DNA of 32,000 bases from Wolbachia endosymbiont of Drosophila innubila (GCF_021378375.1 NZ_CP076228.1:780001-812000), one strand, 5' to 3'; counted from the stretch's first letter, positions 1,394-29,697 are shown. Numbers and translations: made by a program. The notes: generated from the sequence alone by a model not told the origin.

Positions 1394-1623
1394 TTTTGAT
1401 TTATTCCAATAATGGTGTCATTCCAGTGCGTGACACTGGAATCCAGATATAAAAGTATTTGCAAATTATTCAATGGACAACGGATTCTAGAAGCATAAAA
1501 TAATGTCCATGATGAAATAAACTGGATCCCAGTGTCACGCACTGGGATGACATGAGGGAAGCACTGGGATGACACCAGCTTAGCCATGGCAGAAATTTCT
1601 TTACGACTATAACAAGGGATCAT
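1390..1623 (-). other. uORF made of a diverged duplicate of the purB 5' end fused to the palindromic element
   Basis: The ORF starts MIPCYSRKEIS, compared with purB MIPRYSRKEMS. It reads through the repeat and ends with a TGA that overlaps the purB ATG (ATGA at 1390-1393). Its start lies 6 nt downstream of the rplI stop. Confidence 0.5.
1414..1576. repeat. WPE-like palindromic element, full copy (163 bp)
   Basis: Terminal inverted repeats are GGTGTCAT...ATGACACC. Internal arms are GTCATTCCAGTGCGTGACACTGGAATCCAG and CTGGATCCCAGTGTCACGCACTGGGATGAC, around an AT-rich core. The same architecture recurs at 27612-27772, 29478-29647 and 31067-31268. Confidence 0.85.
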
Positions 1624-2191: not shown

Positions 2192-2467
2192 CTAAACTTT
2201 TTTAGTACAGTAAGGAATAAGAGCTAAAAAACGTGCCCTTATGATCGCTAAGCGTAACTTCCTTTGTTTTTTTGCACATACGCCTGTTAATCTTCTAGGT
2301 AATATCCTACCATAGTCAGAGGTAAACTTGGATAATAAATCTATATTCTTATAATCTATGTCTTCATCTTTAGACGCAGCAAGAGGGCAAACTTTAGAAC
2401 GCCTAAAGCCAGTCCTATTATTTACAGATACGTAAGAATTATTAAAACTATTTCGTCTTTTCATCAT
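2192..2467 (-). CDS. rpsR: 30S ribosomal protein S18
   Basis: The 91-aa ORF contains the S18 motif [49 protein letters not shown]. Its start overlaps the rpsF stop (TAATG). Confidence 0.93.
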
Positions 2468-3240
2468 TATGCGCTTTGCTCCTCAATTTGTTTATTCATC
2501 ATATGAGATTTACCTTCAAAAATTTTATCAACCTGCACAGGAAAGTGGCGAATAACGTTCTCATTAAGTTTCATTCTACGCATAAATTCATCCAGAATGC
2601 TTGCAGTAGAACTTATGCACATTATACAATAATGACCGCTCTTCATTTTATTTTTGTGATATGCAAAATCCAAAAGACCCCAATGTTCATACTTGATTAA
2701 TCCTGATGCTTCAATGTTTTTCAAAAGCATTTCCAACGCTTTGCTCGATTGAGTTGGACCGTTTATTCTAAAATCTTTCAAAGTATCTTGAAAAATCTTT
2801 ATTAGATGTTCTGAAATATTTCTCTTCAAAGCATTTACTGCGTTATGGATAAACGCACTTTTAGTACTGCCTCCTAGAAATTTTGTAAAATCTTGCGTTA
2901 TTCCTAAATCTTTTAGGTCATCTTTCAACTCTTTATCGATTTTTGACTTCACTTCTTTCAAATTTGAAAGATCTTCTTCTAATTCAACCCATAAAATTTT
3001 TGTAAGATCTTCCAAGAAATCAGAGTAAGCAACTAGACTTTCTTTAATGTCCTCAGCACGCACTTCTAACTCTTGTTTTGTAAGCTTGTCATTTCCTTTT
3101 TTCAGAATATCCCTGATTTGCTGGAACATAATATCTGCTTTAATATTTTTCAATGAAACAGCTAGCTCTTGGACCATCTCCTCTACTTCTTGCTGTAACA
3201 ATCCTTGTTGTGCTATAAAAGTAAATTCATAAAGATTCAC
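2467..3240 (-). CDS. rpsF: 30S ribosomal protein S6 carrying a 143-aa internal insertion
   Basis: The N-terminus [12 protein letters not shown]... and the C-terminal part ...[28 protein letters not shown]...[13 protein letters not shown] match S6. The ORF is 257 aa, whereas a typical S6 is about 100-135 aa. Confidence 0.85.
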
Positions 3241-12238: not shown

Positions 12239-12305
12239 AATTATGCTCTAAATAAATCCTTTTATTATCTTATGTGAAAATACTATTGTCAAATTTAATT
12301 AAAAG

Positions 12306-12379
12306 TGCGCTTGGAGGGATTCGAACCCACGGCCTTTGCCTCCGGAGGGCAACGCTCTATCCAACTGAGCTACAAGCGC
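12306..12379 (-). tRNA. tRNA-Arg (CCG)
   Basis: The reverse complement reads GCGCTTG-TA-GCTCAGTTGGATAGAGC-G-TTGCC-CTCCGGA-GGCAA-AGGCC-GTGGG-TTCGAAT-CCCTC-CAAGCGC-A. The anticodon is CCG. CCA is not encoded. Confidence 0.9.
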
Positions 12380-12392
12380 ATATATATTTAAG

Positions 12393-13211
12393 TTATTTAA
12401 TAGATAAGCCATCCAAGTCAAATTTTTGTTTTGGATAAAGCGTAAACATAATACTCCCATATCCAAAATATACATTTTGAGAATCATTCGCATGCTTTTT
12501 TATTGCTTTTTGATCTACGGTCCATACAAAAGTTACATAATTTTCAGTGACTGAGTGCACTTTTAAATCCTTAGTATTTATAAACAGTTTTCCATTTACC
12601 CATATTTTCCATGTATCGGGAGAAAGATATAAAATTGAGTCTAAACTCACTACCTTACCGTTGAAATTATCTGATACTTCCTCTTTTGCAGCTCTTGAAG
12701 ATCGTAAATTGAACTTTTCCATTTCATTGACCATTCTATTAACTGGCTCTTCATCAAAAAAAATGCTTTTTACGTTACTATATTGTGACAAAACGTCAAA
12801 GTCACTTTCCACTGCTTCTCTTATTATATCGTCCCGATCTGTATAGCTTAGTTTTTGATTGTTGATAAAGAAACACTCTTTTGCACGCAAATTTGCTATA
12901 TCAATAAAATCGTCGATTTCTTGATTGCCAACTTTAAGAATACTTTCAAAATATCTTTTTTCTATCATCATTCCATACTGAGAATGATGACAAACCATTT
13001 CATCATTACCTTGTTTTTCTATATATACGCATAAATTTCCACTATTTAATCCTAATATTTTATGCTCAATAAAATCTTCATTGCCAATATATTGTCGGCA
13101 AGAATACTCCTTACAAATTTCTATGCTTTCTATGATATCTTCACAACTGCAATATGCATTAACATTGGAAATGAGTAGCGTAAAAATAAAAAACAGCTTT
13201 ATGTTCATCAC
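12393..13211 (-). CDS. Secreted/periplasmic hypothetical protein (third gene of the envelope operon; C-terminal beta domain possibly like the PilP/GspC HR domain)
   Basis: The signal peptide is MMNIKLFFIFTLLISNVNA. There are seven Cys between residues 21 and 113. The C-terminus is beta-rich (KVVSLDSILYLSPDTWKIWVNGKLFINTKDLKVHSVTENYVTFVW). The start lies 1 nt after the upstream stop. Confidence 0.6.
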   Translation of the reverse strand: MMNIKLFFIFTLLISNVNAYCSCEDIIESIEICKEYSCRQYIGNEDFIEHKILGLNSGNLCVYIEKQGNDEMVCHHSQYGMMIEKRYFESILKVGNQEIDDFIDIANLRAKECFFINNQKLSYTDRDDIIREAVESDFDVLSQYSNVKSIFFDEEPVNRMVNEMEKFNLRSSRAAKEEVSDNFNGKVVSLDSILYLSPDTWKIWVNGKLFINTKDLKVHSVTENYVTFVWTVDQKAIKKHANDSQNVYFGYGSIMFTLYPKQKFDLDGLSIK

Positions 13212-13212
13212 C

Positions 13213-13821
13213 TTATCTACTTAATATAGTATACCAATCAAAGACTATATTAGCTCTCACTATCTCTATCATATTACCATTCAAAATCTGATTCATAGTT
13301 GCAGCATCAATATTTCTCTGCTTATTTAAAATAAGAGATTTGATCATAACATAACCTGGCAGATTTGGAATAGACTGTAGAAATAAAAAAATATGCTTAT
13401 CGCTGATTGAGCTTAAATTTAGGATCACTTCACTTTTTATTACTTTTGTGCGTTCACTTTTGTTGTGGAGCTCAACTTCTTCGGGTATAGAAATTGATAT
13501 TTCAGGTTCTAATATATAGTACTTTTTATATAACTTGCTAAGCTCGAAATTTAAATTTGCAATGTATCTGCTACTATGTAAATTTGAAGAGGAAATTTTT
13601 TTCCATAAATCTAGGTTTTTATTTAGAACAACTTCCTTTTTTTGAATTCCAGTAATCTGTAAATTAATAGAACGTATTTTATCAATCGCAATTTGGTTTT
13701 TATTATAAATCTTTTCGTTATAGATAACAACATATGTTAATAACCCTATTAATCCAACAGATAATAACAAATACGATATAAACTGAATTGTAGCTTTTCT
13801 TTTTAATTGAGAGATAGTCAT
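13213..13821 (-). CDS. Bitopic membrane protein, hypothetical (PilO/GspM-like topology)
   Basis: A single N-terminal TM helix (residues ~12-34) is followed by a coiled-coil-like stretch. The C-terminal pattern VILNLSSISDKHIFLFLQSIPNLPGYVMIKSLIL...IVFDWYTI resembles the PilO/GspM ferredoxin-like domain. There is a 4-nt gap to the upstream gene. Confidence 0.6.
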   Translation of the reverse strand: MTISQLKRKATIQFISYLLLSVGLIGLLTYVVIYNEKIYNKNQIAIDKIRSINLQITGIQKKEVVLNKNLDLWKKISSSNLHSSRYIANLNFELSKLYKKYYILEPEISISIPEEVELHNKSERTKVIKSEVILNLSSISDKHIFLFLQSIPNLPGYVMIKSLILNKQRNIDAATMNQILNGNMIEIVRANIVFDWYTILSR

Positions 13822-13825
13822 TAAT

Positions 13826-15265
13826 CTACATTGCCTCTCCTATTTCAACATCAATAGATAGATTTTGCTCTTTAGCAGCAGGTAAGCTAGAAATATTAAT
13901 GTCATAGGTACGAAAATTATCGTTTAAATTTTTTCGTAGTTTCTCGTATTGATGAGAAATATTTTTACCGGATTGAAAATTAAACTTTAAAGTTGTGGTA
14001 ATATAACTTTTTGCCTCATTATAATTCCATTCAAATGATCGAAGCTCTATACCTGGTATTTTTAACTTTTCTACATACTTAACTTGTGTAAGAGGAGAGT
14101 ATTCTATTTTTGATAAAATATTATTGATATTAATAAAATCATAAATTTCATCTATTTTTTTTACATTATAGCTTTGGCTAAGTTTTGTTAATTGGTTATT
14201 TAAGGTGTTCTGCTTTGCTGATAAATTATCAACGACATTGAAATTTGAATACAAATTTAGCAAACAAAGGGTGTTTGTTATAACTAAAACCAGGGCGAAG
14301 TATAGAAAAATTCGAGGAGAGTTTAAATAAAGGTAATTGAATAGATAAAATTCTTTAGTTTCCTTTGTATTAAAAATAGCTGCTAATTTATTCTTAAAGC
14401 TATGAAACAAAATTATGGTATCGCAAAAGTTATCTTTTTCACTTATAGCTAGTTCTGCTCCTAATAGTTTGCCTAACTCATATGGAGTTAATATGTTCAC
14501 ACTGTTCTCTGAAAAATTTATGACTGATAAACTAGCTTTGATATCTTCTGACACTATGATACAAAGGTCGATAGGGTTATTTTTTTCAAACCCAAACTTA
14601 GTTAAGGATCGAATAGTATCTTGCACTTCCTGATATATTCCACCAGCGATAATTCCTGGTAAATTATCATTAGTAAATGATGTTAAGCGCGTAAATACCA
14701 TTTTATTCTCTTTGAGAACCACTTGTCTATAGCCTCCCGTTTTAGTTGCAGCAACTATAATTTTCCAATTATTAGGATCTTTATGTAGAATCTTTTTTGT
14801 TATATTACTTATTTCTATAGGAAACATTAATATTCCCTTAAAGTTGGAGCCTATCTCAATAAACACATTCAACCAATATTCTACTAAATGCTTTGCTTTT
14901 GATGAAACAAGAAGATAGCACCAGTTTTGATTGAATTTGTTTGGCTTCTCAACAAAAAAAACTGAACTTATGTCATTATTACGAGAAAAATGCTCCATCT
15001 TTGTTTTTGCTGATAGATAGGCACTAATCTTGTTTGCCCTTGTAATAAACTGTAGCGAGTAATTTTGATCTGCATGATTAAGCACCAGGTATAAAGGTGC
15101 TTTTTTATCTGACGAAAGACATGAAATTAAATCAGAAACTGCTTTATCGTTTTTGCCCTTAACAAAATACCTTTTATTTAAAGTATTATTTTTAAAATAT
15201 AGTAACATTATGCCTTCTTCTCCAATAGAAAGCATAAACTTACTTTTGGATTTTGAACTAAACAT
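13826..15265 (-). CDS. Membrane protein, hypothetical (topology like a PilM-PilN fusion or GspL)
   Basis: The 479-aa ORF has a ~315-aa cytoplasmic alpha/beta domain and a single TM at ~318-339 (IFLYFALVLVITNTLCLLNLY). A ~140-aa periplasmic part follows, with a coiled coil and then beta strands. Confidence 0.6.
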   Translation of the reverse strand: MFSSKSKSKFMLSIGEEGIMLLYFKNNTLNKRYFVKGKNDKAVSDLISCLSSDKKAPLYLVLNHADQNYSLQFITRANKISAYLSAKTKMEHFSRNNDISSVFFVEKPNKFNQNWCYLLVSSKAKHLVEYWLNVFIEIGSNFKGILMFPIEISNITKKILHKDPNNWKIIVAATKTGGYRQVVLKENKMVFTRLTSFTNDNLPGIIAGGIYQEVQDTIRSLTKFGFEKNNPIDLCIIVSEDIKASLSVINFSENSVNILTPYELGKLLGAELAISEKDNFCDTIILFHSFKNKLAAIFNTKETKEFYLFNYLYLNSPRIFLYFALVLVITNTLCLLNLYSNFNVVDNLSAKQNTLNNQLTKLSQSYNVKKIDEIYDFININNILSKIEYSPLTQVKYVEKLKIPGIELRSFEWNYNEAKSYITTTLKFNFQSGKNISHQYEKLRKNLNDNFRTYDINISSLPAAKEQNLSIDVEIGEAM

Positions 15266-15626: not shown

Positions 15627-17372
15627 CTAACCATTTGCTGAAGAGCGCTCATCTTCTGTGGTACTTGATGATGGAGCAACTAATTTGCTCAAAATCTCAT
15701 CTTTTGGTCCCATAGCGTAAATGATACCATCTGACATGAGGATCACCTTATCAACTACGGACAATAACGGTAGCTTGTGAGTGATGATAACAGTAGTAGT
15801 ATTTTGTTTTCTTGCAATGCCAATTGCATTAATTAAGCATGCCTCTCCATTGCTATCTAAGTTAGCGTTTGGTTCATCAAGTACTAAAAGTTTTGTGTGA
15901 CCATAAAAAGCTCTGGCAAGTCCAAGAAGCTGTTTTTGGCCGCCAGAGAGCGTTACTCCTCCAGGACCTCCTATTGTTGTATCATATCCATTTGGTAAGC
16001 TTAGTATTAGTTCATGTATTCCTGCAATTTTTGCTGCTTTGATTATTTCTTCAGGATTTGGATCTGGCCTCATGCGAGCAATATTAGCTTTGACACTAGT
16101 GTTAAATAACTCAATATCCTGAGGTAAGTAGCCAACATAATTACCAAAATTTTCTCGATTCCAAGTATATACATCAGCGCCATCTAGTCTGACTACACCA
16201 GATATTGGCTTCCATACACCAACAGTTAATTTTGCGATAGTGGATTTACCAGAAGCACTTGCACCAATAACACCAACTACATCTCCAGGATCTATAATGA
16301 ATGATATTCCTTTTACTGTCGGCTTATTGCTTCCATAAGGAGTAAAAAATACTCTATCAAATTCCAATTTTCCTTCAGGTTCTGGTAGAGCCATCGTTTG
16401 CTCTCTTTTTGGCGATGTTAATATAAGTCTTTGTAGCCTTCCATATGACATTCTAGCCTGATTTAAAAACTTCCAAGTATGAACCGCAGCGTCAAATGGT
16501 GCTAATACTCTACCCATTAAAATTGAAGCAGCGATGATGCTACCGGCAGTCTTATGAGCTGTGATTGCAAGTAATGCACCTGTTCCAATTACTGATATTT
16601 GCAGAGTTGAGCGCAAAAATTTAGTGATTCCAGTAATTACATTAGAGCGATTTTGTGCTTTAATTTGCATTGCTCGGTTCTGATCATTTCGTTTACACCA
16701 ATCAGAGACTATGAATTCTGACATGCCCATAGCTTCAACCACTTCTGCATTTCTTGTTGCAACATCTATAGCATTGATATTCCGTATAGTTTCTTCGTTG
16801 GTTTCTTGTAATATTCGTTTAGTGGCAAGTTCATTCCATATTGCCATAGAGACTAATATAATAATTCCAGTAATAGCTATAAACCCCGTGGAGGTATGTA
16901 TCATGAAAATCACAACAAGGTAAATTAACGACCATGGAGTATCAAACAGTGAGAATATACCATTTCCTGTAATGAAATTTTTTATCACTCCGAGATCTCG
17001 TATTGCTTCACCACTTGAAGTTGAGCTCTGCACTGACGTTAGCCTGATTGACCTTACTATCAGATCTGGTGTTGCAGTTTTATCGATCCAATCACCTATT
17101 TTTGCCATGGCTAAATATCGACAAGTTTCAAGCATTGCAGAACATGCAAATGCAGATAAAGTGATAATTGTCAGCATAGTTAGTGTTGATACACTTTCGC
17201 TCGATATCACCCGATCAAGCACTTGAGAGATATAAAGTGGTAGGAATAACATTAATAAATTGATTCCCGCACTAAACCAAAAGATAAACCAAAATGCACT
17301 TTTGCATTTTTCTAGGCAAACATATAGAGTACTTTGCTTCAATTCTTTTTTTATTGATGGCGTAATTTCCAC
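15627..17372 (-). CDS. Type I secretion system ABC transporter, permease/ATPase (PrtD/AprD/HlyB family)
   Basis: The 581-aa ORF has an N-terminal six-TM domain, Walker A GASASGKST, ABC signature LSGGQKQ and Walker B LLVLDEPNANLD. There is no N-terminal C39 peptidase domain. Confidence 0.88.
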   Translation of the reverse strand: MEITPSIKKELKQSTLYVCLEKCKSAFWFIFWFSAGINLLMLFLPLYISQVLDRVISSESVSTLTMLTIITLSAFACSAMLETCRYLAMAKIGDWIDKTATPDLIVRSIRLTSVQSSTSSGEAIRDLGVIKNFITGNGIFSLFDTPWSLIYLVVIFMIHTSTGFIAITGIIILVSMAIWNELATKRILQETNEETIRNINAIDVATRNAEVVEAMGMSEFIVSDWCKRNDQNRAMQIKAQNRSNVITGITKFLRSTLQISVIGTGALLAITAHKTAGSIIAASILMGRVLAPFDAAVHTWKFLNQARMSYGRLQRLILTSPKREQTMALPEPEGKLEFDRVFFTPYGSNKPTVKGISFIIDPGDVVGVIGASASGKSTIAKLTVGVWKPISGVVRLDGADVYTWNRENFGNYVGYLPQDIELFNTSVKANIARMRPDPNPEEIIKAAKIAGIHELILSLPNGYDTTIGGPGGVTLSGGQKQLLGLARAFYGHTKLLVLDEPNANLDSNGEACLINAIGIARKQNTTTVIITHKLPLLSVVDKVILMSDGIIYAMGPKDEILSKLVAPSSSTTEDERSSANG

Positions 17373-18062: not shown

Positions 18063-18854
18063 CTATGTGACAGATTTCGTATTAAATTTTAAATTTAATG
18101 CGCCTAGATATACAAGCATTCCTAGCAAAACCATAGGTATAGAAAGCAACTGCCCCATAGTTAAATCAAGCCACAAATAGCCAATTTGATAGTCTGGTTC
18201 GCGAAAAAACTCAACGAAAAAACGTGCTATTCCATACCACATAACTGCAATACCAGTTAACGCACCGTGATACAGTCTTATTCTAGTTAAGAAAAACAGT
18301 GAATTTGCAACTGCAAAAAGTAGCAGTCCTTCAAAAAGTGCCTCATAAAGCTGGCTTGGATGATGCAGCAAATTATCACCACTCTCTGGAAATACCATAC
18401 CCCATGGCATAGTTGTAACTCTGCCAAATAACTCTCCGTTTATAAAATTGCCTATGCGACCTAAAAATAAACCTATGGGAACTCCGCAAGAAACTAGGTC
18501 CAGTGCATAAAATGTAGGGATATTATGTCTTTTACACGAAATTATTACTGCAAGCAAAACTCCTATAGCACCACCATGAAATGACATCCCTCCTTCCCAG
18601 GTCTTCAATATCTCAATAGGGTTGCTTATATAAAGAACTGGATCATATATCAATACGTAGCCAAGTCTACCTCCAAGGATAATACCTACAATAGTGGCTG
18701 TTAATAACGAATCGTAAAAATTCTTAGTAAATATTTTTTGGTCATCTAGCTTATGTAAATACCAATATGCAAACACTATACCCAAAACGTAGGCTAAGGA
18801 ATACCAATATATAGAAACAGGACCGATGCTGAAAATTACTGGATTTAAAGACAT
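18063..18854 (-). CDS. lgt: Prolipoprotein diacylglyceryl transferase
   Basis: The 263-aa polytopic membrane protein has Lgt motifs (GGMSFHGG, GRIGNFINGELFG). Confidence 0.92.
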   Translation of the reverse strand: MSLNPVIFSIGPVSIYWYSLAYVLGIVFAYWYLHKLDDQKIFTKNFYDSLLTATIVGIILGGRLGYVLIYDPVLYISNPIEILKTWEGGMSFHGGAIGVLLAVIISCKRHNIPTFYALDLVSCGVPIGLFLGRIGNFINGELFGRVTTMPWGMVFPESGDNLLHHPSQLYEALFEGLLLFAVANSLFFLTRIRLYHGALTGIAVMWYGIARFFVEFFREPDYQIGYLWLDLTMGQLLSIPMVLLGMLVYLGALNLKFNTKSVT

Positions 18855-18860
18855 ATTTTG

Positions 18861-19310
18861 CTATAAATTATTCTTAGACAATCTACTTTTTTCACGATCC
18901 CACTCTCTCTGTTTTATGGTTGCTCTCTTATCGTAGAGTTTTTTTCCTTTTACAATGGCAATTTTAGTTTTTGCAAATCCTTTATCGTTAAAATAGACCG
19001 AAAGCGGCACAACAGTTATCCCAGCAGTCTTGATTTGACCAATTAGTTTATTTATCTCCTTTTTATGCAAGAGTAATTTACGTTCCCTTTTTGGTTTATG
19101 ATTTTTTCGGTTCGCAGCTTTATATTCTGCAATATGCATATTGTGCAGCCATACTTCGCTATTCTTTTCAACAACGTAGGCGTCGGAAATATTTACTTTT
19201 CTTTCTCTTAGCGATTTAACTTCACTGCTTAATAAGACCATACCCGCTTCAAATTCTTCTAAGATGAAATATTCAAACCTTGCTTTCCTATTTTCTGCAA
19301 TAACTTCCAT
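18861..19310 (-). CDS. smpB: SsrA-binding protein
   Basis: The 149-aa ORF contains [17 protein letters not shown]..., KLLLHKKEI and a basic C-terminal tail. Confidence 0.93.
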
Positions 19311-19430
19311 ATCTAAAGATATCTTTAAGCTTCAATATATTACAGAGTTTTTGACTTAATTCATAATAAAACAGTTATCCCAATAAATATAAGGTGCCAG
19401 GCTAGTCTGATAGCAACAGGATAACAAAAA

Positions 19431-20208
19431 TCAAGTAAGTGCTTTTTCTGTCTCTCTAGGCACAGGTTCCTTTACTTCTTTCATTTCAGGTTTAGGCTTT
19501 GACATTATATATTGACCAGCACCAACTATGAGCGCAGATCCTGCAGCTAGTCCAATTATTGCTGGTACAGATAGGGCAGTAGCAAATGCAAGTGCAACAC
19601 CAACTATCACTGCAGTTACAAAACACACAATAACACCTTTTACAATTGCATTTTTTGCAGATTGTTCTTTATTCTTTCACAATTGCATTTTTTCCAATTT
19701 GTTTTTCTTCCTTTTTCTCTGGAAGCTGCATTACATCTTTATTTTCAGTAAGATCCTTTGGCGTTTTTTTATTCTCATTTTTTAACGTTTGCTTTTTTTC
19801 CGCTTCCTCTAAAAGCTGAATTATACCTTGATCTTTAGTGAGGTCTCTTGGCGTTTTTCCATCAACATCTTTTAATGAAGGGTCTGCTCCAGCTTCTAGC
19901 AGAACTTTTACTATACCTTCGTGGCCATTTTTAGCAGCAAGATGTAAAGGAGTACGTCTATCACCATTTTTTGCCTTAACCTTTGCTCCTTTTGCGATTA
20001 GAGTTTTTACTACATCTTCGTGGCCATTTGCAGCAGCAACATGCAAAGGAGTCCATCTATCAGCATCCTTTATATTAACATCTGCTTTCTCAACTAGAAT
20101 TTTTACTACCTCTATGTGGTTCCCTTCAGCAGCAAGATGTAAAGGTGTACATCTATCATCATCTTCTGCATTAACATTTAGAGGTTGTCCGGAAACTAGT
20201 AAATTCAA
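19431..20208 (-). pseudogene. Ankyrin-repeat protein with a C-terminal two-helix TM anchor, disrupted twice
   Basis: ORF 19669-20208 has 3-4 ANK repeats (TPLHLAAxxGHxxVVKxL). Its apparent start is a TTG inside the IS terminal repeat. ORF 19431-19628 encodes the hydrophobic tail. The two ORFs are separated by a +1 frameshift caused by a 37-bp tandem duplication. Confidence 0.8.
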
Positions 20209-21095
20209 GCATATTCCCTCTTTAACATAACCCTACTCATAGCTAGGTATATGAAATTCTCAGTGGATGTTGTGAGTAAATCATACTCCTTCGATAGCCT
20301 TCTATTCCTATTAACCCAAGCAAAAGTCCTTTCTACAACCCATCTTCTTGGCTGTACTTTAAACCCTTGTTCTCTTGTTGGTAGTAGCTCAGGTGGCGTA
20401 TCTTTGTGCACCCAAAATCTACATGGAGGCCTTTTAACAATTTCAATATCTATGTCATATTCTTCCTTTATGTGATTCTTTAAATTTCTTCCTTGGTATC
20501 CCATGTCAGCCCACATTTTTTTAACTTTAGTATATTTTGTTCTCATATTGTTTAATGCTATTTTAATACCATCTCTATCATTTTCGTTAGCAGCGCCTAC
20601 GTAACAACCTAGTATAAAACCCTGAGTGTCTGTAATTATATGCCTTTTTCTACCCTTTACTTTTTTACTTCCATCATAGCTTTGATCCCCCCTTTTCTGT
20701 AGTCTTTACAGATTGACTATCTACTATACAGGCACTCGGCTGCTCATTCTTTCCTATTTTTCTTCTACTATATTTTGTAATTTCATAATTCATTTTCTCA
20801 AAAATTCCCTGCTTCTTCCATTGCCTGAACTGCTCATACACAGTCTTCCATAGCGGAAAATCATTTGGTAAATACCGCCATTGACACCCTGTACGCAATA
20901 CATAGAAAATTGCTTCTAATATTTCTTTTTTGCTATACTTTGGCAGCCTTCCTCCTTTCTTGTATGATACTCTGAAGTGTTTTTCTATTCTTGCCCATTC
21001 CCTTTCGCTTAGATCTGTTGGATACTTTTTTCTCATCTTTACCCCGTACTAAAATTTCAGATATTATAGCCTTTTACTTGTTTCCGGACAACCTC
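20181..21095 (-). mobile_element. IS5-family insertion sequence (ISWpi1-like), 915 bp
   Basis: The terminal inverted repeats are GAGGTTGTCCGGAAAC[T/A]AGTAAA, matching at 22 of 23 positions. The flanking triplets are TTA (20178-20180) and TGA (21096-21098). A two-ORF transposase lies inside. Confidence 0.88.
20205..21036 (-). CDS. IS5-family DDE transposase, OrfA (20674-21036) and OrfB region (20205-~20690) joined by a frameshift at a G6 run
   Basis: OrfA reads MRKKYPTDLSEREW...CIVDSQSVKTTEKGG. The +1 frame after GAAAAGGGGGGAT (C-run 20687-20692 on the + strand) continues as DQSYDGSKKVKGRKRHIITDTQGF...MWADMGYQG...VVERTFAWVNRNRRLSKEYD. Confidence 0.85.
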
Positions 21096-21200
21096 TGATA
21101 TAGATTTTATTATACTCTTTGGCATAACATTTGCAACATACTTTATCTATAAATGGAAATTATTATACTTGCAGCTAGACACAATTTGAAATAATTTACA

Positions 21201-21972
21201 CTATAAAGTTAAGGAACGAGATCCCAGATACAAGTGTCTGGGCACTGGGATGACAGGAGGGGGGGTTGGAATGACACCAGTATGGTTATTAATTGAATAA
21301 ATAACCTCCTTATTTTCAGAAATCATTGGCAAACAAATGTGATGCCATATGTTTTTTGGCTTAGATAAGAGGTGCCCAGTTAAGTCTTCCAGGTGGAGCC
21401 TATGCATCACAAGCACAATTACTCCTTTTTTTCTATCGTTGAGTCTCGTTACTAAAGTCTGATCGAACCAGTTTGTGGCACGTTTTCTAAATGTTTCACT
21501 CAAAGCTTGAGCAGGGTTAAGCGGATCATCCACAATAATAGAGTCACCACCTTCACCGGTTAATGTTCCTCCAACTGATGTTGCGATTCTGTATCCTCTC
21601 TGCACTGTTTGGAATTTATATTTAGTGTTCTGGTCTTTGGATAGTTCTACCTCTGGAAATAGTTCTTTATACCAATCAGATTGCATTATGCACCTGGTAT
21701 CAAGCGAATGTTTTTCACTAAGCAACTTAGAATAACTTGCAACTATTATTCTTGCAGTTGCCCAGTATCCATGCGGGCCACGCAACACTCATACATATGG
21801 ACTTCATTGAACGCGGAGGCATATTGAATATTATGCGCCTTACTTCGCCAGCATTCGCTGCTTCCAGCCTTTCTGCTATGACTTTTATGTACTGATAATC
21901 ATTATACTCACATCCCGGCACCACTGTTTGAAAGCACAGTTCAATGAATTTTAGAAAATTTATATTATCCAT
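21201..21972 (-). pseudogene. Phage terminase large subunit (ATPase domain) remnant, frameshifted and truncated at the 3' end
   Basis: The 81-aa and 195-aa ORFs overlap. Together they give ...IIFNMPPRSMKS...VAWPAWILG / ARIIVASYSKLL...GGDSIIVDDP...VLVMHRLHLEDL, which carries Walker A-like and Walker B motifs. The reading frame runs into a WPE half-copy (21220-21278) and ends. The nuclease domain is absent. Confidence 0.7.
21220..21278. repeat. 3' half of a WPE-like element
   Basis: GATCCCAGATACAAGTGTCTGGGCACTGGGATGACAGGAGGGGGGGTTGGAATGACACC matches the 3' arm of the 29478-29647 copy. Confidence 0.7.
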
Positions 21973-25793: not shown

Positions 25794-25948
25794 AAATGCT
25801 GCAGCTTCTTGACCTAATTTTCTATGTTACCACAAAACACGTCAAGCGAAATTATTTGAAGACAAATAAATACTGGCAATCAATTTAACACTAACTTAAG
25901 AATCAAGGAATACAATTATAATATATTTAATTAATAGTGAGGTTTAAA

Positions 25949-27472
25949 ATGTTACATAATGAAAAAAATTCAAATTCTGTTGGAACTCAACAAAACCAAC
26001 CAGAAGATAGTTTTGATTTGAATAAAACGATGCAAAATCTACCAAATTCAGATATTGCTAATGATCACAAGAAGCTAAAAGAAAGAATGACTGACCTGTT
26101 AAAAGGAGATACAGAATTCTCTAAGATGAAACAAGGAGATAAGATTCTTGTAGTAAGTACAGCAAGTGGATTATTTACGGCAGTACTACCACTTTTGGCA
26201 GTTGGTGCAACACTTGCTATACCGGGTGCTATAGTTGGTCTTGCTTTATATTTCGCTGTAAAAGTCGCTGTAAAAGCAGTTCAATCTGGATATAAAGGGC
26301 TCAAGTGGTCAGCAGAAAAAACAGTTGATGGGGCGAAATATACTGCTGGGAAAGTTAAGGACGCATCAACATACGCTGCCGGAAAAGTTAGAGATGGTGC
26401 TATGCATGTTAAAGATAAGGTGAAAGAAGGTTATGAACATTCAGTAGATTCACTGAAAAAAGGCGCTAGTTTTGTAGGCGAAGGAGTGGCAAATAAGTTC
26501 CATAAGGCATCTGGTGAGACGGACTATTTAGATAAGGTAAAAAGGTTTACTCCAGATGCAATTAAGAAATCTGACGAAATAAGAAATGATATGAAAGCAA
26601 TTTTTGCTGATAAAGGAAATAATTCTGGGTTAGTGAAAAATATACTTTCTGGAATATCGTCAGAAATTGATTTAAAAATGGCAGAGAAGGCAAAATCAGG
26701 GGAGATTGAACATACTTCTGGATGGCAAGCACAGAAAGAATTCATTAATAATTTAAATGAAAAAAGCTTGCATAACTTGTTAATACAAAGGTCATTACCT
26801 AAAGGTAGTTATTTCATCGACAGTGTTTTCTCTGAACATCACGATGAAATTAAGAAGGTTATTAAAGAATGTAGAAAAAATCATTTGTACTCAAGCGTAA
26901 GCAATATGTTTGACAGAGCAGAGAAAAAAGCTAACAGGCCTTCTGTCAAAAGTTTAACTAGGTCTGTGTCATCATCATTCTCTTCACTGGGAAGAAAAGG
27001 CTCTGAACAATCTAACAGCTTGTCAAAAAGCAATTCACTAAATTCTATAGGAACTGAAAGTACTGCTACTGTCTCTGATTCAGATTCTCAGAACTTTGCA
27101 ACAGTCCGTAGAAGCAATTCATCTAGTAGCTTAACTCCTAAGCTTACTCCAGTTGCTCCACCAGAACTACCTAGAAGCGCCTCATTGACTAACTTAAATG
27201 GACAAAGTTCTTTCAGTGAAGATGTTCTCAGTGATCCTATTGTGGAGCAAAACCTGGATAGTTTGAGTAACAGGACTCTCACTCACAGTAATTCTACTGA
27301 TAGTGGAATGGGTTCTGGTTCTTCTACGCTAACAAGAAAACAAGCTCTTCCTTTAAAAGAAGAATTTGACAGAGAACTCGAAGAAAAGTTGGCAAAACGA
27401 CGCGCATCTCTAGATCAACCTAGTGCAGAACCTGTCAACTCAAGAGCTACAGCAACTCCAGGAACAGTGTAA
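25949..27472 (+). CDS. Membrane-hairpin protein with synuclein/LEA-like 11-mer repeats and a Ser-rich disordered C-terminus; candidate secreted effector (WalE1-like)
   Basis: The ATG at 25949 is preceded by GAGG with a 6-nt spacer; the GTG at 25937 lies within that SD. A hydrophobic hairpin spans residues ~66-110. The 11-residue repeats are AGKVKDASTYA / AGKVRDGAMHV / KDKVKEGYEHS. The C-terminal ~180 aa is Ser-rich with repeated R-x-x-S motifs, including KRRASL. Confidence 0.75.
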   Translation: MLHNEKNSNSVGTQQNQPEDSFDLNKTMQNLPNSDIANDHKKLKERMTDLLKGDTEFSKMKQGDKILVVSTASGLFTAVLPLLAVGATLAIPGAIVGLALYFAVKVAVKAVQSGYKGLKWSAEKTVDGAKYTAGKVKDASTYAAGKVRDGAMHVKDKVKEGYEHSVDSLKKGASFVGEGVANKFHKASGETDYLDKVKRFTPDAIKKSDEIRNDMKAIFADKGNNSGLVKNILSGISSEIDLKMAEKAKSGEIEHTSGWQAQKEFINNLNEKSLHNLLIQRSLPKGSYFIDSVFSEHHDEIKKVIKECRKNHLYSSVSNMFDRAEKKANRPSVKSLTRSVSSSFSSLGRKGSEQSNSLSKSNSLNSIGTESTATVSDSDSQNFATVRRSNSSSSLTPKLTPVAPPELPRSASLTNLNGQSSFSEDVLSDPIVEQNLDSLSNRTLTHSNSTDSGMGSGSSTLTRKQALPLKEEFDRELEEKLAKRRASLDQPSAEPVNSRATATPGTV

Positions 27473-27495
27473 TAAGTAAAACTTCTACCTTCTCC

Positions 27496-27531
27496 AAAAG
27501 GATGTTACTCAATGAGTAACGTCCTTTTTTT
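27496..27531 (+). terminator. Rho-independent terminator downstream of the effector-like gene
   Basis: AAAAGGATGTTACTC-AAT-GAGTAACGTCCTTTTTTT forms a 12-bp stem with one G-U pair and a 3-nt loop, followed by a T7 run. An upstream A-run makes it potentially bidirectional. Confidence 0.8.
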
Positions 27532-27611
27532 GTTTTTAAACTATAGAAAAATCCTAGATCCCAGCGGTATGCGTACAACCGTATGAACATTGTGATTTCT
27601 CTGCTAGGAAA

Positions 27612-27772
27612 GGTGTCATCCGAGTAGCTGACACTGGGATCCAGGAAAGTTTGCTTGTTTACAAGCAAACTAGCATAGGAAGTGGTTACAACGTTTTCGA
27701 TGAGATTATATGGAAAACTGGATTCCAGTGTCAAGCACTGGAATGACATCACAGGGGCACTGGGATGACACC
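27612..27772. repeat. WPE-like palindromic element, full copy (161 bp)
   Basis: GGTGTCATCCGAGTAGCTGACACTGGGATCCAG ... CTGGATTCCAGTGTCAAGCACTGGAATGACATCACAGGGGCACTGGGATGACACC. The architecture is the same as the copy at 1414-1576. Confidence 0.85.
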
Positions 27773-27913
27773 TTTACGTTTGAGGCAAACTAGCTATAAC
27801 ACTTAACATACTACCTTTGCAAACAAATGTTCATACAGTACGCGCTGGCGTTATTTTCTCTTGATGAATAAATCTCGGTAGAGTATAGTAGCAATGCATT
27901 TATGTAGCTACTA

Positions 27914-28249
27914 ATGAATAATTTAGTTTTGGTTTATACAACTTTTTCAAATTTTGAGGAGGCTAAAACTGTTTCTGAAGAATTGTTAAACGAGAAATTA
28001 ATTGTATGTGTAAATATATTTCCCGAAGTGAATTCTCTGTATTTATGGGAAGGTAAAATTAGTAATAGTTGTGAAGTAGTGGCAATTATGAAGAGCAGGA
28101 ATGATCAAGTTGATAAAATTGTAGAAAAAATCGAAGCAATGCATTCTTATGATCAGCCAGCTATTGCTGTGATGCCCATAGAAAAAGCAAATAAATCTTT
28201 TACTAATTGGGCTAATAGTGTTATTGATGTAAGTAGTATTGGGGTGTAG
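27914..28249 (+). CDS. cutA: Divalent-cation tolerance protein CutA
   Basis: The 111-aa ORF follows the CutA1 pattern (VLVYTTFSNFEEAKTVSEELLNEKLIVCVNIFPEVNSLYLWEGKI...HSYDQPAI). The last 10 nt, including the TAG stop, overlap tRNA-Gln. Confidence 0.88.
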   Translation: MNNLVLVYTTFSNFEEAKTVSEELLNEKLIVCVNIFPEVNSLYLWEGKISNSCEVVAIMKSRNDQVDKIVEKIEAMHSYDQPAIAVMPIEKANKSFTNWANSVIDVSSIGV

Positions 28250-28314
28250 CCAAGTGGTAAGGCAGCGGTTTTTGATACCGCCACGCGAAGGTTCGAATCC
28301 TTCCACCCCAGCCA
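28240..28314 (+). tRNA. tRNA-Gln (UUG), CCA encoded
   Basis: TGGGGTG-TA-GCCAAGTGGTAAGGC-A-GCGGT-TTTTGAT-ACCGC-CACGC-GAAGG-TTCGAAT-CCTTC-CACCCCA-G-CCA. It closely parallels the canonical bacterial tRNA-Gln, with a U1-A72 pair. Confidence 0.92.
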
Positions 28315-28332
28315 TATTGAAGTGGGTGTGAA

Positions 28333-28908
28333 ATGATATCACTTTTCTATAAATTAAGATTATTGAATTATATATTAGGTAGTCTAAAAGATATAATTGT
28401 GAAACTGTTTCTCTTCACAATGTATCTTTACACATTCAGCATTGTGCTCATGTTTCTCAGCAATGGTTTTTGGTATGCTGTAGAATTTTGCTCTTTCAAA
28501 AATGCGTTTTACCGTTTGTTTCAATATTGCAAGTGGTATTATGAAAATAGGGAAGATCTCGGTTACGGAATTTCTATTCGAATATTAGTGGCGTTTCTTA
28601 CTCCGCATTTTCTCTATAAATTATTACTTGGCACAGGCTGGAAGTCCTTTTTAAAGGAAAAGATAATACAGATACTCAACACAAGAAGAAAAAAGGGTAG
28701 TGAGTTCAGTAACAGTAGCAAACCAAGTGGCAGTAGTTATAGTGATAAGAATAATTACAGCAATAACAGTGGTAACAATGAGCGTCAAGCTCAAGATGCA
28801 AAGCGAAAAGTAAACATGATAAAGCAGCTATTAATCAAAGATATAGAGGCAACTATAGATAGGAGATTGAATTATATTTTTTTCGGTAAAAGGAGTAAAC
28901 CTCATTAA
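28333..28908 (+). CDS. Hypothetical membrane protein with a Ser/Asn-rich low-complexity C-terminal region
   Basis: The 191-aa ORF has two or three hydrophobic segments in the N-terminal half, followed by SEFSNSSKPSGSSYSDKNNYSNNSGNN. No family was recognised. Confidence 0.4.
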   Translation: MISLFYKLRLLNYILGSLKDIIVKLFLFTMYLYTFSIVLMFLSNGFWYAVEFCSFKNAFYRLFQYCKWYYENREDLGYGISIRILVAFLTPHFLYKLLLGTGWKSFLKEKIIQILNTRRKKGSEFSNSSKPSGSSYSDKNNYSNNSGNNERQAQDAKRKVNMIKQLLIKDIEATIDRRLNYIFFGKRSKPH

Positions 28909-29261: not shown

Positions 29262-29697
29262 ACAGCAGATTCCGCTAACAAGCAGCGGGATAACGAATTA
29301 CTTAACCGTCATTACACCGTCATACCGCGATTCATTCGCGGTATCTCGCTAACAAGCAGCGGACCGTCATACTGCCGCGGCGCTAACAAGCAGCGGGATG
29401 ACGGTTGTCAGGCCAGCGCCCCCATGATGTCATTCAAGTAGCTGACACTGGTTCCTTTATGACGGCAGTGCCCCTATGGTGTCATCCCAGCGTTCCTATG
29501 ATGTCATCCCAGTGCCCAGACACTGGGATCCAGGAATTTTGATTGGACACTGGGTTGGTAAGCATAAAAGTGTTATGTAAAATACAACATTCTTGATGGG
29601 ATTGTGTGAAATGCTGGATCCCAGTGTCTGGGCACTGGGATGACACCATAGGAGGCTGCTTGGATGACAAAAAAAGGAGCACTGGAATGACAGCAAT
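29262..29697. repeat. Pile of nested short palindromic repeats (GCTAACAAGCAGCGGGATGAC / CGTCATACCGCGATTCATTCGCGGTAT hairpins plus a WPE-like copy at 29478-29647 with extra half-arms)
   Basis: There are several copies of two hairpin motifs at 29270-29410. These are followed by GGTGTCATCCCAG...CTGGGCACTGGGATGACACC and flanking half-sites. Confidence 0.8.

Follow-up and report, generated by a model that had tools for sequence, protein, structure and literature searches.

In the 32,000-nucleotide stretch of the genome of the Wolbachia endosymbiont of Drosophila innubila that we analysed (GCF_021378375.1, NZ_CP076228.1:780001-812000; hereafter the window), three uncharacterised genes lie side by side on the minus strand at positions 12393-15265. 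This trio is likely to be a relic of the inner-membrane and periplasmic alignment subcomplex, or assembly platform, of an ancestral type IVa-like pilus of the Rickettsiales, which has been retained and, because the motor genes have been lost from the locus yet selection persists, probably repurposed. The window belongs to the wMel group of Wolbachia, and the orthologues of the three genes, WD_0771 to WD_0773, are all annotated "hypothetical", as is every name that the databases give them. Gene 1 (13826-15265, minus strand) encodes 479 aa from an ATG start and is the orthologue of WD_0771. Gene 2 (13213-13821, minus strand) encodes 202 aa from an ATG start, and its protein is 100% identical to WD_0772. 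Gene 3, the orthologue of WD_0773, extends on the minus strand from 12393 to 13208 (ATG start, 271 aa) or to 13211 (GTG start, 272 aa). An earlier reading made from the sequence alone (the original prediction) had described translational packing with gaps of 4 nt and 1 nt; the three open reading frames (ORFs) lie exactly where it placed them, and 4 nt indeed separate genes 1 and 2, but a gap of 1 nt between genes 2 and 3 follows only from the GTG start. An ATG stands immediately 3' of that GTG, and the true gap is probably also 4 nt, because the 271-aa product from 13208 is exactly the deposited WD_0773 and most orthologues are 271 aa long.

Linkage to pilus genes in relatives

When a single genome per species was scanned, 58 loci came back, and the fetched loci numbered 62; their ORFs were called and clustered by BLAST, and the gene order was written out. 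A distant metagenomic homologue was located directly after the genes for a PilB-like ATPase (MshEN and T2SSE domains) and a T2SSF platform protein, and was followed by homologues of genes 2 and 3. About 30 loci have the order E (~620 aa, PilB-like), F (400 aa, PilC-like), G1, G2, and G3; they come from metagenome-assembled genomes (MAGs) labelled Rickettsiales, Alphaproteobacteria, Hyphomicrobiales, Rhodospirillaceae, and similar, at 20-28% identity. Two further T2SSE proteins (~375 aa) and a tetratricopeptide repeat (TPR) protein are encoded a short way downstream, in the opposite orientation, in about ten of these loci. The neighbours were typed in one locus, L040, where E carries the MshEN and T2SSE domains with an MshE-type cyclic di-GMP (c-di-GMP) motif and is closest to PilB (499 bits, TIGR02538), followed by GspE (486 bits), and where F carries a T2SSF domain and is closest to GspF and PilC. 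Both short ATPases of this locus passed the PilT/PilU family cutoff of 319, at 430 and 477 bits, and the TPR protein, which was also found in L039, showed a weak resemblance to PilW. Because their neighbours are of the PilB, PilC, and PilT/PilU types, the three families of these relatives stand where pilMNOP would be in the gene cluster of a retractile, type IVa-like pilus. The relic inner-membrane platform considered in the original prediction is strongly and independently supported by this synteny, with the families placed directly after pilB-pilC in about 30 loci and directly before pilT/pilU in about a third of them.

Linkage to an extension ATPase and a platform protein was found in those relatives, but not in the window or in the loci of Wolbachia, Ehrlichia, and Neoehrlichia. 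In Wolbachia, Neoehrlichia, and Ehrlichia ruminantium (482, 208, and 180 aa in the latter), the trio alone is left at the locus with the same tight spacing, and the Wolbachia proteins share 22-35% identity with those of Ehrlichia and Neoehrlichia. A Mesenet contig carries genes 1 and 2 and then ends. In 57 of the 62 loci fetched, gene 2 comes next after gene 1.

The clusters of the relatives have a further frequent neighbour. A soluble ABC ATPase of ~245 aa is encoded directly 3' of G3 in ~15 loci (e.g., L040:10240-10974), and its best matches were of the DrrA, GldA, and NodI types, all below cutoff. Several further loci have an ATPase from the same sequence cluster immediately upstream of pilB, encoded on the other strand, and in six of them it adjoins a gene of the squalene/phytoene synthase family.

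Architecture of the three proteins

The product of gene 1 consists of a cytoplasmic actin-like (ASKHA) domain (residues ~1-300; 14366-15265, minus strand), a transmembrane (TM) helix (residues 317-340; 14246-14317, minus strand), and a periplasmic part (residues 341-479; 13829-14245, minus strand). Residues 317-340 are the sole segment in which a 19-residue Kyte-Doolittle window reaches at least 1.6, and they are helical in the AlphaFold2 (AF2) model, whose mean pLDDT (predicted local distance difference test) is 75.6. Up to residue ~300 the model shows an alpha/beta domain with two beta-beta-beta-alpha-beta-alpha halves. This domain would correspond to two RNaseH-like halves with no evident room for a 2B insert of the PilM/FtsA type. 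From the TM helix onward, the elements of the model are helices at 317-365 (which contains the TM segment), 369-386, and 391-399, strands at 406-416 and 421-430, a helix at 436-450, and strands at 455-458 and 469-478; in other words, a coiled-coil helix is followed by an alpha-beta-beta-alpha-beta-beta unit, a predicted layout like that of PilN, PilO, and the periplasmic domain of GspL. The topology in the original prediction, a cytoplasmic alpha/beta domain, one TM helix at residues ~318-339, and a periplasmic coiled coil with a beta unit, agrees well with these results.

Foldseek gave 51 matches of the gene 1 model in the PDB at E ≤ 0.001. The best were PilM of P. aeruginosa and T. thermophilus (5eoy, 2ych, and 5eou) and FtsA, and the cytoplasmic domains of EpsL (1yf5), PulL (5tkw), and GspL (4pht) came next; all of these matched at E-values of 1e-8 to 1e-7 with a probability of 1.0. 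The highest target-normalised TM-scores, 0.54-0.55, belonged to the GspL-type domains, and sugar kinases and other actin-fold proteins matched at much weaker E-values. The fold is thus the actin-like (ASKHA) fold of the PilM/FtsA/GspL subgroup. Because this fold match is combined with a TM helix, a coiled coil, and the twofold alpha-beta-beta layout, gene 1 is predicted from its model to be a bitopic single-chain PilM-PilN fusion of the GspL/MshI type, as the original prediction had also supposed from the architecture. Eleven residues are invariant in the family, namely G15, G18, Q67, G144, E151, W167, R180, Q181, F191, P261, and D282, and all are cytoplasmic.

Homologues of gene 1 were found in all sampled Wolbachia supergroups, in Neoehrlichia (31% identity), and as two metagenome proteins of 622-624 aa, and look-ups of the family by name added Mesenet and Ehrlichia ruminantium. 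A profile search of 1.84 billion representatives returned 1162 clusters at E ≤ 0.001, of which 381 were at ≤ 1e-30. Gene 1 itself matched no Pfam or NCBIfam model, including those for PilM (PilM_2 and pilM); there was no such Pfam match in any of 38 gene 1 relatives scanned singly, nor any NCBIfam match in a pilus-linked relative.

The product of gene 2 has a single hydrophobic span by hydropathy (residues 10-36), with KRK before it, which indicates an N-in orientation, then a coiled coil (~37-105) and a C-terminal domain of ~95 aa. The N-terminal TM helix of the original prediction and the motifs quoted there are present. In topology and position, gene 2 agrees with PilO, GspM, and MshJ, whose bitopic N-in chains have a coiled coil before an alpha/beta C-terminal domain of ~100 aa and are encoded right after a PilN-type gene, and a PilO-like fold may be suggested for gene 2 on this basis. 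The coiled-coil region matched only coiled-coil proteins among PDB sequences, and the homologues listed for gene 2 were all at least 83% identical. No relevant Pfam match, and hence none to PilO, GspM, or MshJ, was obtained among 42 gene 2 relatives scanned singly. The gene 2 family gave a probability of <1% by hhalign against HofN, HofO, and GspM of E. coli, and a profile-profile comparison with the gene 1 family, looking for paralogy of the PilN/PilO kind, gave 7%.

The product of gene 3 begins with a short signal-peptide-like stretch, MMNIKLFFIFTLLISNVNA, which ends in VNA before the putative cleavage site and is followed by YCSC. Its AF2 model (pLDDT 64.5) shows two folded domains, one Cys-rich (residues 22-117) and one of seven strands (187-270). 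In the 272-aa numbering, the N-terminal Cys-rich alpha+beta domain covers residues ~22-117 (12861-13148, minus strand; pLDDT ~80), and the C-terminal all-beta domain covers residues ~181-272 (12396-12671, minus strand) according to the alignment and the model. The signal peptide, the Cys-rich N-terminal part, and the beta-rich C-terminus of the original prediction agree with hydropathy, alignment, and model. Six Cys residues of the N-terminal domain (23, 33, 38, 61, 74, and 113) are invariant. This domain was found only in the Anaplasmataceae (Wolbachia, Neoehrlichia, and Ehrlichia) and is missing in the MAG relatives. The core of the C-terminal domain, W..W.NG ... F.L.PNQ.F, and the SIFF motif preceding it are common to the third gene of the pilus-linked clusters, and gene 3 is homologous to that third gene in the pilB-pilC-G1-G2-G3 clusters of the relatives. 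Gene 3 is a mosaic of an Anaplasmataceae-specific N-terminal domain and a C-terminal domain shared with pilus-bearing relatives. Its product, which as the module's third component takes the position of PilP or GspC, is predicted to be exported to the periplasm. The orthologues in Ehrlichia ruminantium (L061:10067-10609) and Neoehrlichia (L026:12006-12566 and L027:11962-12549) have only 180-195 aa; they keep the N-terminal domain and SIFF, and the C-terminal beta domain is gone, with no trace in tblastn searches of these loci. In many relatives, the N-terminal stretch of the third protein has an Ala-rich end followed by Gln, resembling a signal peptidase I site.

In two relatives (L030:9656-11761 and L043:3897-5387), the third-gene slot is occupied by different, larger proteins (701 and 496 aa) with weak beta-flower or DUF3659 matches. 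Because of these two loci, the third component of the pilus cluster in relatives is replaceable.

Selection, possible function, and alternative explanations

The trio was kept in every fetched Wolbachia locus that reached far enough, with one pseudogenised exception, and of the 19 loci from the Wolbachia clade that span the whole trio, 17 have every one of its genes at full length. The ratio of nonsynonymous to synonymous substitution (dN/dS; pairwise Nei-Gojobori across Wolbachia loci, dS ~0.9-1.1) was 0.16 for gene 1, 0.17 for gene 2, and 0.16 for gene 3, compared with 0.15 for ssb, 0.19 for dapA, and 0.06 for the neighbouring ABC transporter gene. All domains of the trio are constrained, and the lowest value within gene 1 is that of the cytoplasmic domain (0.13). 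Because the genes are conserved as a trio in Wolbachia, Ehrlichia, Neoehrlichia, and ~30 MAG loci at a dN/dS of ~0.16, they are not chance ORFs, and because the compact operon is kept under purifying selection, the trio still works.

We propose the following course of events. The ancestral Rickettsiales would have possessed a type IVa-like pilus machine that included the trio, with gene 1 as a fused PilM-PilN, gene 2 as its bitopic partner in the position of PilO, GspM, or MshJ, and gene 3 in the position of PilP or GspC. In Wolbachia, Ehrlichia, and Neoehrlichia, pilB, pilC, and pilT/pilU would then have been lost from the locus, and the trio would have stayed as a compact operon. The products of genes 1 and 2 may pair in the inner membrane through their TM and coiled-coil segments, gene 3 may dock onto both in the periplasm, and the cytoplasmic domain of gene 1 presumably still binds a cytoplasmic partner, since the constraint on this domain is strong. 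Together the three proteins would form a membrane-spanning scaffold in a use other than a pilus.

Several observations weigh against this proposal. The trio showed no sequence-level link to PilM/N/O/P or GspL/M/C in Pfam, NCBIfam, PDB sequence profiles, or hhalign, the last of these being run against single E. coli sequences. The PDB profile searches, made with four alignments, returned coiled-coil or chance matches, with PilN of M. xanthus appearing twice at E ~0.85; for the periplasmic profile of gene 1, it was the sole match (at a non-significant E of 0.85) apart from coiled-coil proteins. The three families against E. coli HofM/N/O/P and GspC/L/M were all below 1% probability in a comparison of low power. 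The comparison of profiles and structures called for in the original prediction gave a match for the fold of gene 1 and none for the profiles of all three proteins or for the fold of gene 3. FtsA matches the gene 1 model about as well as PilM does, and the fold proposed for gene 2 is without a sequence or profile signal. The gene 3 model, of which the C-terminal domain was compared with the PDB as part of the whole model (like the periplasmic domain of gene 1), found no fold match better than E = 0.33 at its pLDDT of 64.5, and the protein has neither a canonical lipobox nor a PDZ domain. For PilP, this means no lipobox Cys and no fold match, the latter being a weak test with a moderate model; for GspC, it means no PDZ or other Pfam match, a short hydrophobic stretch with a cleavage-like site, and no fold match to the HR domain. 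The resemblance of gene 3 to PilP and GspC HR domains, which the original prediction had seen, received no support from these comparisons.

The remaining adverse points concern conservation. In L025:10001-12990, from the Wolbachia MAG isolate C61_2 (JBPETD010000001.1), the trio is shattered into ORFs of at most ~100 aa, which still give 50% identity to gene 1 by tblastn, between intact flanks (a 406-aa gene upstream, ssb and dapA downstream). At least one lineage can therefore do without the module. Three draft assemblies have a shortened gene 2 or gene 3, which may reflect real changes or assembly errors. Finally, the absence of other pilus genes from Wolbachia is drawn from this window and from the literature.

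In the literature, WD0771 and WD0772 were listed as lineage "signature proteins" with no function proposed, the former specific to Rickettsiales and the latter to Anaplasmataceae without Neorickettsia (Gupta and Mok, 2007; PMC2241609). The same work reports WD0771 in Rickettsia; of 20 representative matches of gene 1 looked up by name, none came from Rickettsia. According to published reconstructions, the last ancestor of the Rickettsiales had type IV pili (T4P), which were lost repeatedly afterwards (Schön et al., PMC9352585; Castelli et al., PMC10847448). Supplementary Data 4 of PMC9352585 gives pilB, pilC, and pilD a score of 0 for the Anaplasmataceae ancestor. Family 01Z70, which is unannotated and has faint T4P_pilN matches, is traced there from the Rickettsiales ancestor to the Anaplasmataceae ancestor, Anaplasma, Neoehrlichia, and Ehrlichia; 023KA, another family of this kind, occurs in the table in these three genera and in a single basal MAG (PMC9352585). 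Families 01Z70 and 023KA probably correspond to genes 1 and 2. If 01Z70 is gene 1, its scored absence from the Rickettsiaceae in that table conflicts with the claim that WD0771 occurs in Rickettsia (PMC2241609). We found no paper describing WD_0771-0773 as pilus-derived.

The same table also assigns a secretin family (90% K12282 mshL) to the Anaplasmataceae ancestor, although none of the five genomes of this family with visible columns, among them Anaplasma, N. lotoris, and E. canis, is scored as having it, and it lists a "T4P_pilT" family in Anaplasmataceae only (PMC9352585); 02CW5 and 02CK6 are the two protein families concerned. Many Wolbachia strains are reported to carry one "type II secretion system protein", one in every strain of the visible part of the table, with 495 aa in wMel and wHa (WD_RS02220, WP_022626270.1, type unstated; Lindsey, PMC7397232). 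Because these published tables list a 495-aa type II secretion system (T2SS) protein, an MshL-type secretin, and a PilT-like family, the label "orphan" may be too strong for the trio. A search of the literature on secretin, mshL, or PilT in Wolbachia and Anaplasmataceae gave nothing useful.

It is possible, although we think it doubtful, that the trio works with a retained MshL-type secretin, a PilT-like ATPase, or both, encoded elsewhere in the genome, in a reduced pilin-less trans-envelope machine. The mshL-typed secretin scored in the ancestor must sit in taxa beyond the visible columns, and it would join the Anaplasmataceae-only pilT family and the 495-aa protein as candidate partners; the cytoplasmic domain of gene 1, which corresponds to the ATPase-binding part of GspL and PilM, is the most constrained part of the protein. 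Moreover, the C-terminal domain of gene 3 is kept in Wolbachia and pilus-bearing relatives and lost in Ehrlichia and Neoehrlichia, where E. canis and N. lotoris are scored secretin-less in the visible columns (PMC9352585). This co-variation, drawn from a handful of genomes and a published table seen in part, would fit a role in contacting a secretin; we take it as a lead and not as a result, and no fold evidence speaks for binding between gene 3 and a secretin. Against the idea, the scanned ORFs of ~430-560 aa in the fetched Wolbachia loci held no secretin or T2SSE ATPase, and the ten of ~470-520 aa scanned in Wolbachia-clade loci were MurJ, TrkH, Rho, GatB, a recombinase, proteins with toxin domains, and similar. 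In addition, pilB, pilC, pilD, and the pilins are scored absent in the table as far as it is visible (PMC9352585).

A more specific form of this idea, that a type IV pilus gave rise in Wolbachia to a minimal trans-envelope apparatus without pilins and with the trio as its core, seems to us unlikely. In this picture, a leftover PilT/GspE-like ATPase would be kept at the inner membrane by the GspL-like gene 1 product, gene 3 would extend to an MshL-type secretin by way of its C-terminal beta domain, and the Ehrlichia group would have lost the secretin and that domain together and kept the inner-membrane half. If it were true, an obligate endosymbiont would possess an unrecognised conduit or envelope-coupling device beside its type I and type IV secretion systems (T1SS and T4SS). 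Should a leftover secretin or ATPase work with the trio, this would amount to a further envelope machine in Wolbachia and would matter for host manipulation and for drug targeting of filarial Wolbachia.

It is improbable that gene 1 now serves, in the manner of FtsA, as a cytoskeletal or divisome protein anchored in the membrane, with envelope partners encoded by genes 2 and 3, after an exaptation to division or envelope growth. The equally good match of FtsA structures to the gene 1 model can be counted for it, and in P. aeruginosa the pilus alignment subcomplex is reportedly recruited to future division sites. However, FtsA is anchored to the membrane by an amphipathic helix. A fused TM helix and a periplasmic domain are the GspL/MshI design, the ancestral linkage is to pilus motor genes, and no division or cell-wall gene adjoins the trio in any fetched locus. 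Gene 1, with a true TM helix and 139 periplasmic residues, is therefore not classed as FtsA in spite of the fold matches.

It is very improbable that the trio no longer has a function and is decaying towards its loss. The pseudogenised trio in L025, the shortened genes in three drafts, and the departure of the motor genes from the locus would agree with decay; the selection data largely refute it, since dN/dS is at the level of ssb and dapA at the dS given above, nearly all spanning Wolbachia-clade loci have the three genes full-length, and the tight-spaced trio persists in Ehrlichia and Neoehrlichia in spite of the low identity. We give almost no credence to a role of the trio as accessory or substitute periplasmic adaptor of the adjoining PrtD-type T1SS ABC transporter, whose gene is found on the same strand, 361 nt upstream, and is not accompanied by one for HlyD, because this adjacency is restricted to the window and four or five fetched loci (gene 1 81-96% identical) and different genes precede gene 1 in other Wolbachia loci; HlyD (505 aa in wMel) and TolC are encoded elsewhere, with three T1SS genes in each strain visible in the table (PMC7397232); no HlyD-type domain was found in the trio with Pfam or NCBIfam; and the relatives examined link the trio to pilB-pilC, none of them with an adjoining T1SS ABC permease. 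Of the T1SS neighbour noted in the original prediction, the ABC protein without an adjacent HlyD gene is thus real, and a functional link is not supported.

On the preferred reading of a retained pilus platform, pilus loss in crown Rickettsiales, or at least in Anaplasmataceae, appears incomplete, and the scaffold outlived the motor at this locus, which suggests exaptation. Because the genomes of Wolbachia and of its pathogenic relatives Ehrlichia and Neoehrlichia are small, a gene under selection is presumably needed, and pilus-assembly ancestry gives WD_0771-0773, formerly plain hypotheticals, a testable structural role. There is also a gap in annotation: more than 1000 clusters (at 50% identity) of proteins in the PilMN, PilO, and PilP positions are invisible to Pfam and NCBIfam, and surveys using such profile models could undercount components of the alphaproteobacterial type IVa-like pilus.

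As for the surroundings of the trio in the window, the upstream neighbour (15627-17372) encodes the PrtD-type T1SS ABC protein (TIGR01842, 670 bits), and a tRNA-Arg gene lies directly downstream, followed by ssb and dapA. The remaining large ORFs are housekeeping genes, namely purB, rplI, rpsF, dnaE, gltX, ligA, htrA, hflKC, and murD. The absence of a secretin, pilin, prepilin peptidase, or hexameric (T2SSE) ATPase from the window, remarked on in the original prediction, was reproduced in a Pfam scan of the 14 larger ORFs, which left out the smaller ones at 18063-21788 and 27447-28908. Promoter and terminator scans gave counts not above those of shuffled sequence.

Some unrelated features were also observed. 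WsnRNA46 (Rfam RF02625, 66-76 bits) has three copies in the window (1396-1572, 27594-27768, and 29480-29661), the first of which scores on both strands. The 511-aa ORF at 25937-27472 (plus strand), between hflK and a tRNA-Gln gene, had no Pfam match at E ≤ 1e-5, and a 64-aa ORF at 12299-12493 (minus strand) overlaps the tRNA-Arg gene (12305-12379) and is almost certainly spurious. The listed GTG start of the 257-aa "rpsF" ORF (2467-3240, minus strand) is probably far too early, because its S6 domain is confined to residues 169-233. In the Wolbachia of Ctenocephalides orientis (wCori), two adjoining ORFs with Tc-toxin domains, one with ABC_toxin_N and a neuraminidase-like domain and the other with the TcB-binding domain of TcA, are located ~5 kb downstream of the trio (L023:17472-20851).

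Comparison with known systems

The PilM-PilN-PilO-PilP subcomplex of type IVa pili (T4aP), for which P. aeruginosa, M. xanthus, and T. thermophilus served as comparison, resembles the trio in three respects. The cytoplasmic fold of gene 1 is the PilM fold; two bitopic proteins with a TM helix, a coiled coil, and a small alpha/beta domain (the last of these a conjecture for gene 2) are followed by a periplasmic third protein; and the genes of the relatives adjoin pilB, pilC, and, in about ten loci, pilT/pilU. Unlike in these pili, PilM and PilN would be fused in one chain in Wolbachia, the trio shows no profile similarity to PF11104, PF05137, PF04350, or PF04351, gene 3 is not a canonical lipoprotein and has no PilP fold match, and the Wolbachia trio is without adjoining pilB, pilC, pilQ, or pilin genes.

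GspL of the T2SS is likewise a single chain with an actin-like cytoplasmic domain, one TM helix, and a periplasmic ferredoxin-like domain, and, from the order of elements in its model, gene 1 also seems to be without a 2B subdomain. In contrast, the trio had no profile matches to T2SSL, GspL_C, T2SSM, or PDZ, gene 3 seems to have a cleavable signal peptide instead of the TM anchor of GspC, and retraction ATPases of the PilT/PilU family occur in the clusters of ~ten relatives, as would be expected of a retractile pilus and not of a T2SS.

In the MSHA pilus of Vibrio, encoded with MshI-MshJ-MshK, a fused PilM-PilN of ~480 aa is followed by a partner of ~216 aa, and MshN is a TPR protein. The assembly ATPase of the relatives resembles this system in its MshEN domain and MshE-type c-di-GMP motif, and a TPR protein is encoded near their cluster, as MshN is in MSHA; a further resemblance is the mshL (K12282) typing of the Rickettsiales secretin family in PMC9352585. 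Differences are that no NCBIfam or Pfam model tied to MshI, MshJ, or MshK matched the trio, and that gene 3 is much larger than MshK and carries the Anaplasmataceae-specific Cys-rich domain.

A platform that survives without neighbouring motor genes in obligate intracellular bacteria is unusual. To our knowledge, Wolbachia has no flagellum. A precedent for the reuse of pilus alignment proteins as the scaffold of another envelope machine is offered by PilMNOPQ homologues co-opted as a cage around the flagellar motor, which differ from the trio in their recognisable Pil sequences and in having a known new partner, the flagellar motor (PMC10823254). Judging from all these comparisons, the trio would work like PilMNOP, GspLMC, or MshIJK, and we would place it among the assembly platforms of type IV filaments, as a divergent variant that lacks annotation.

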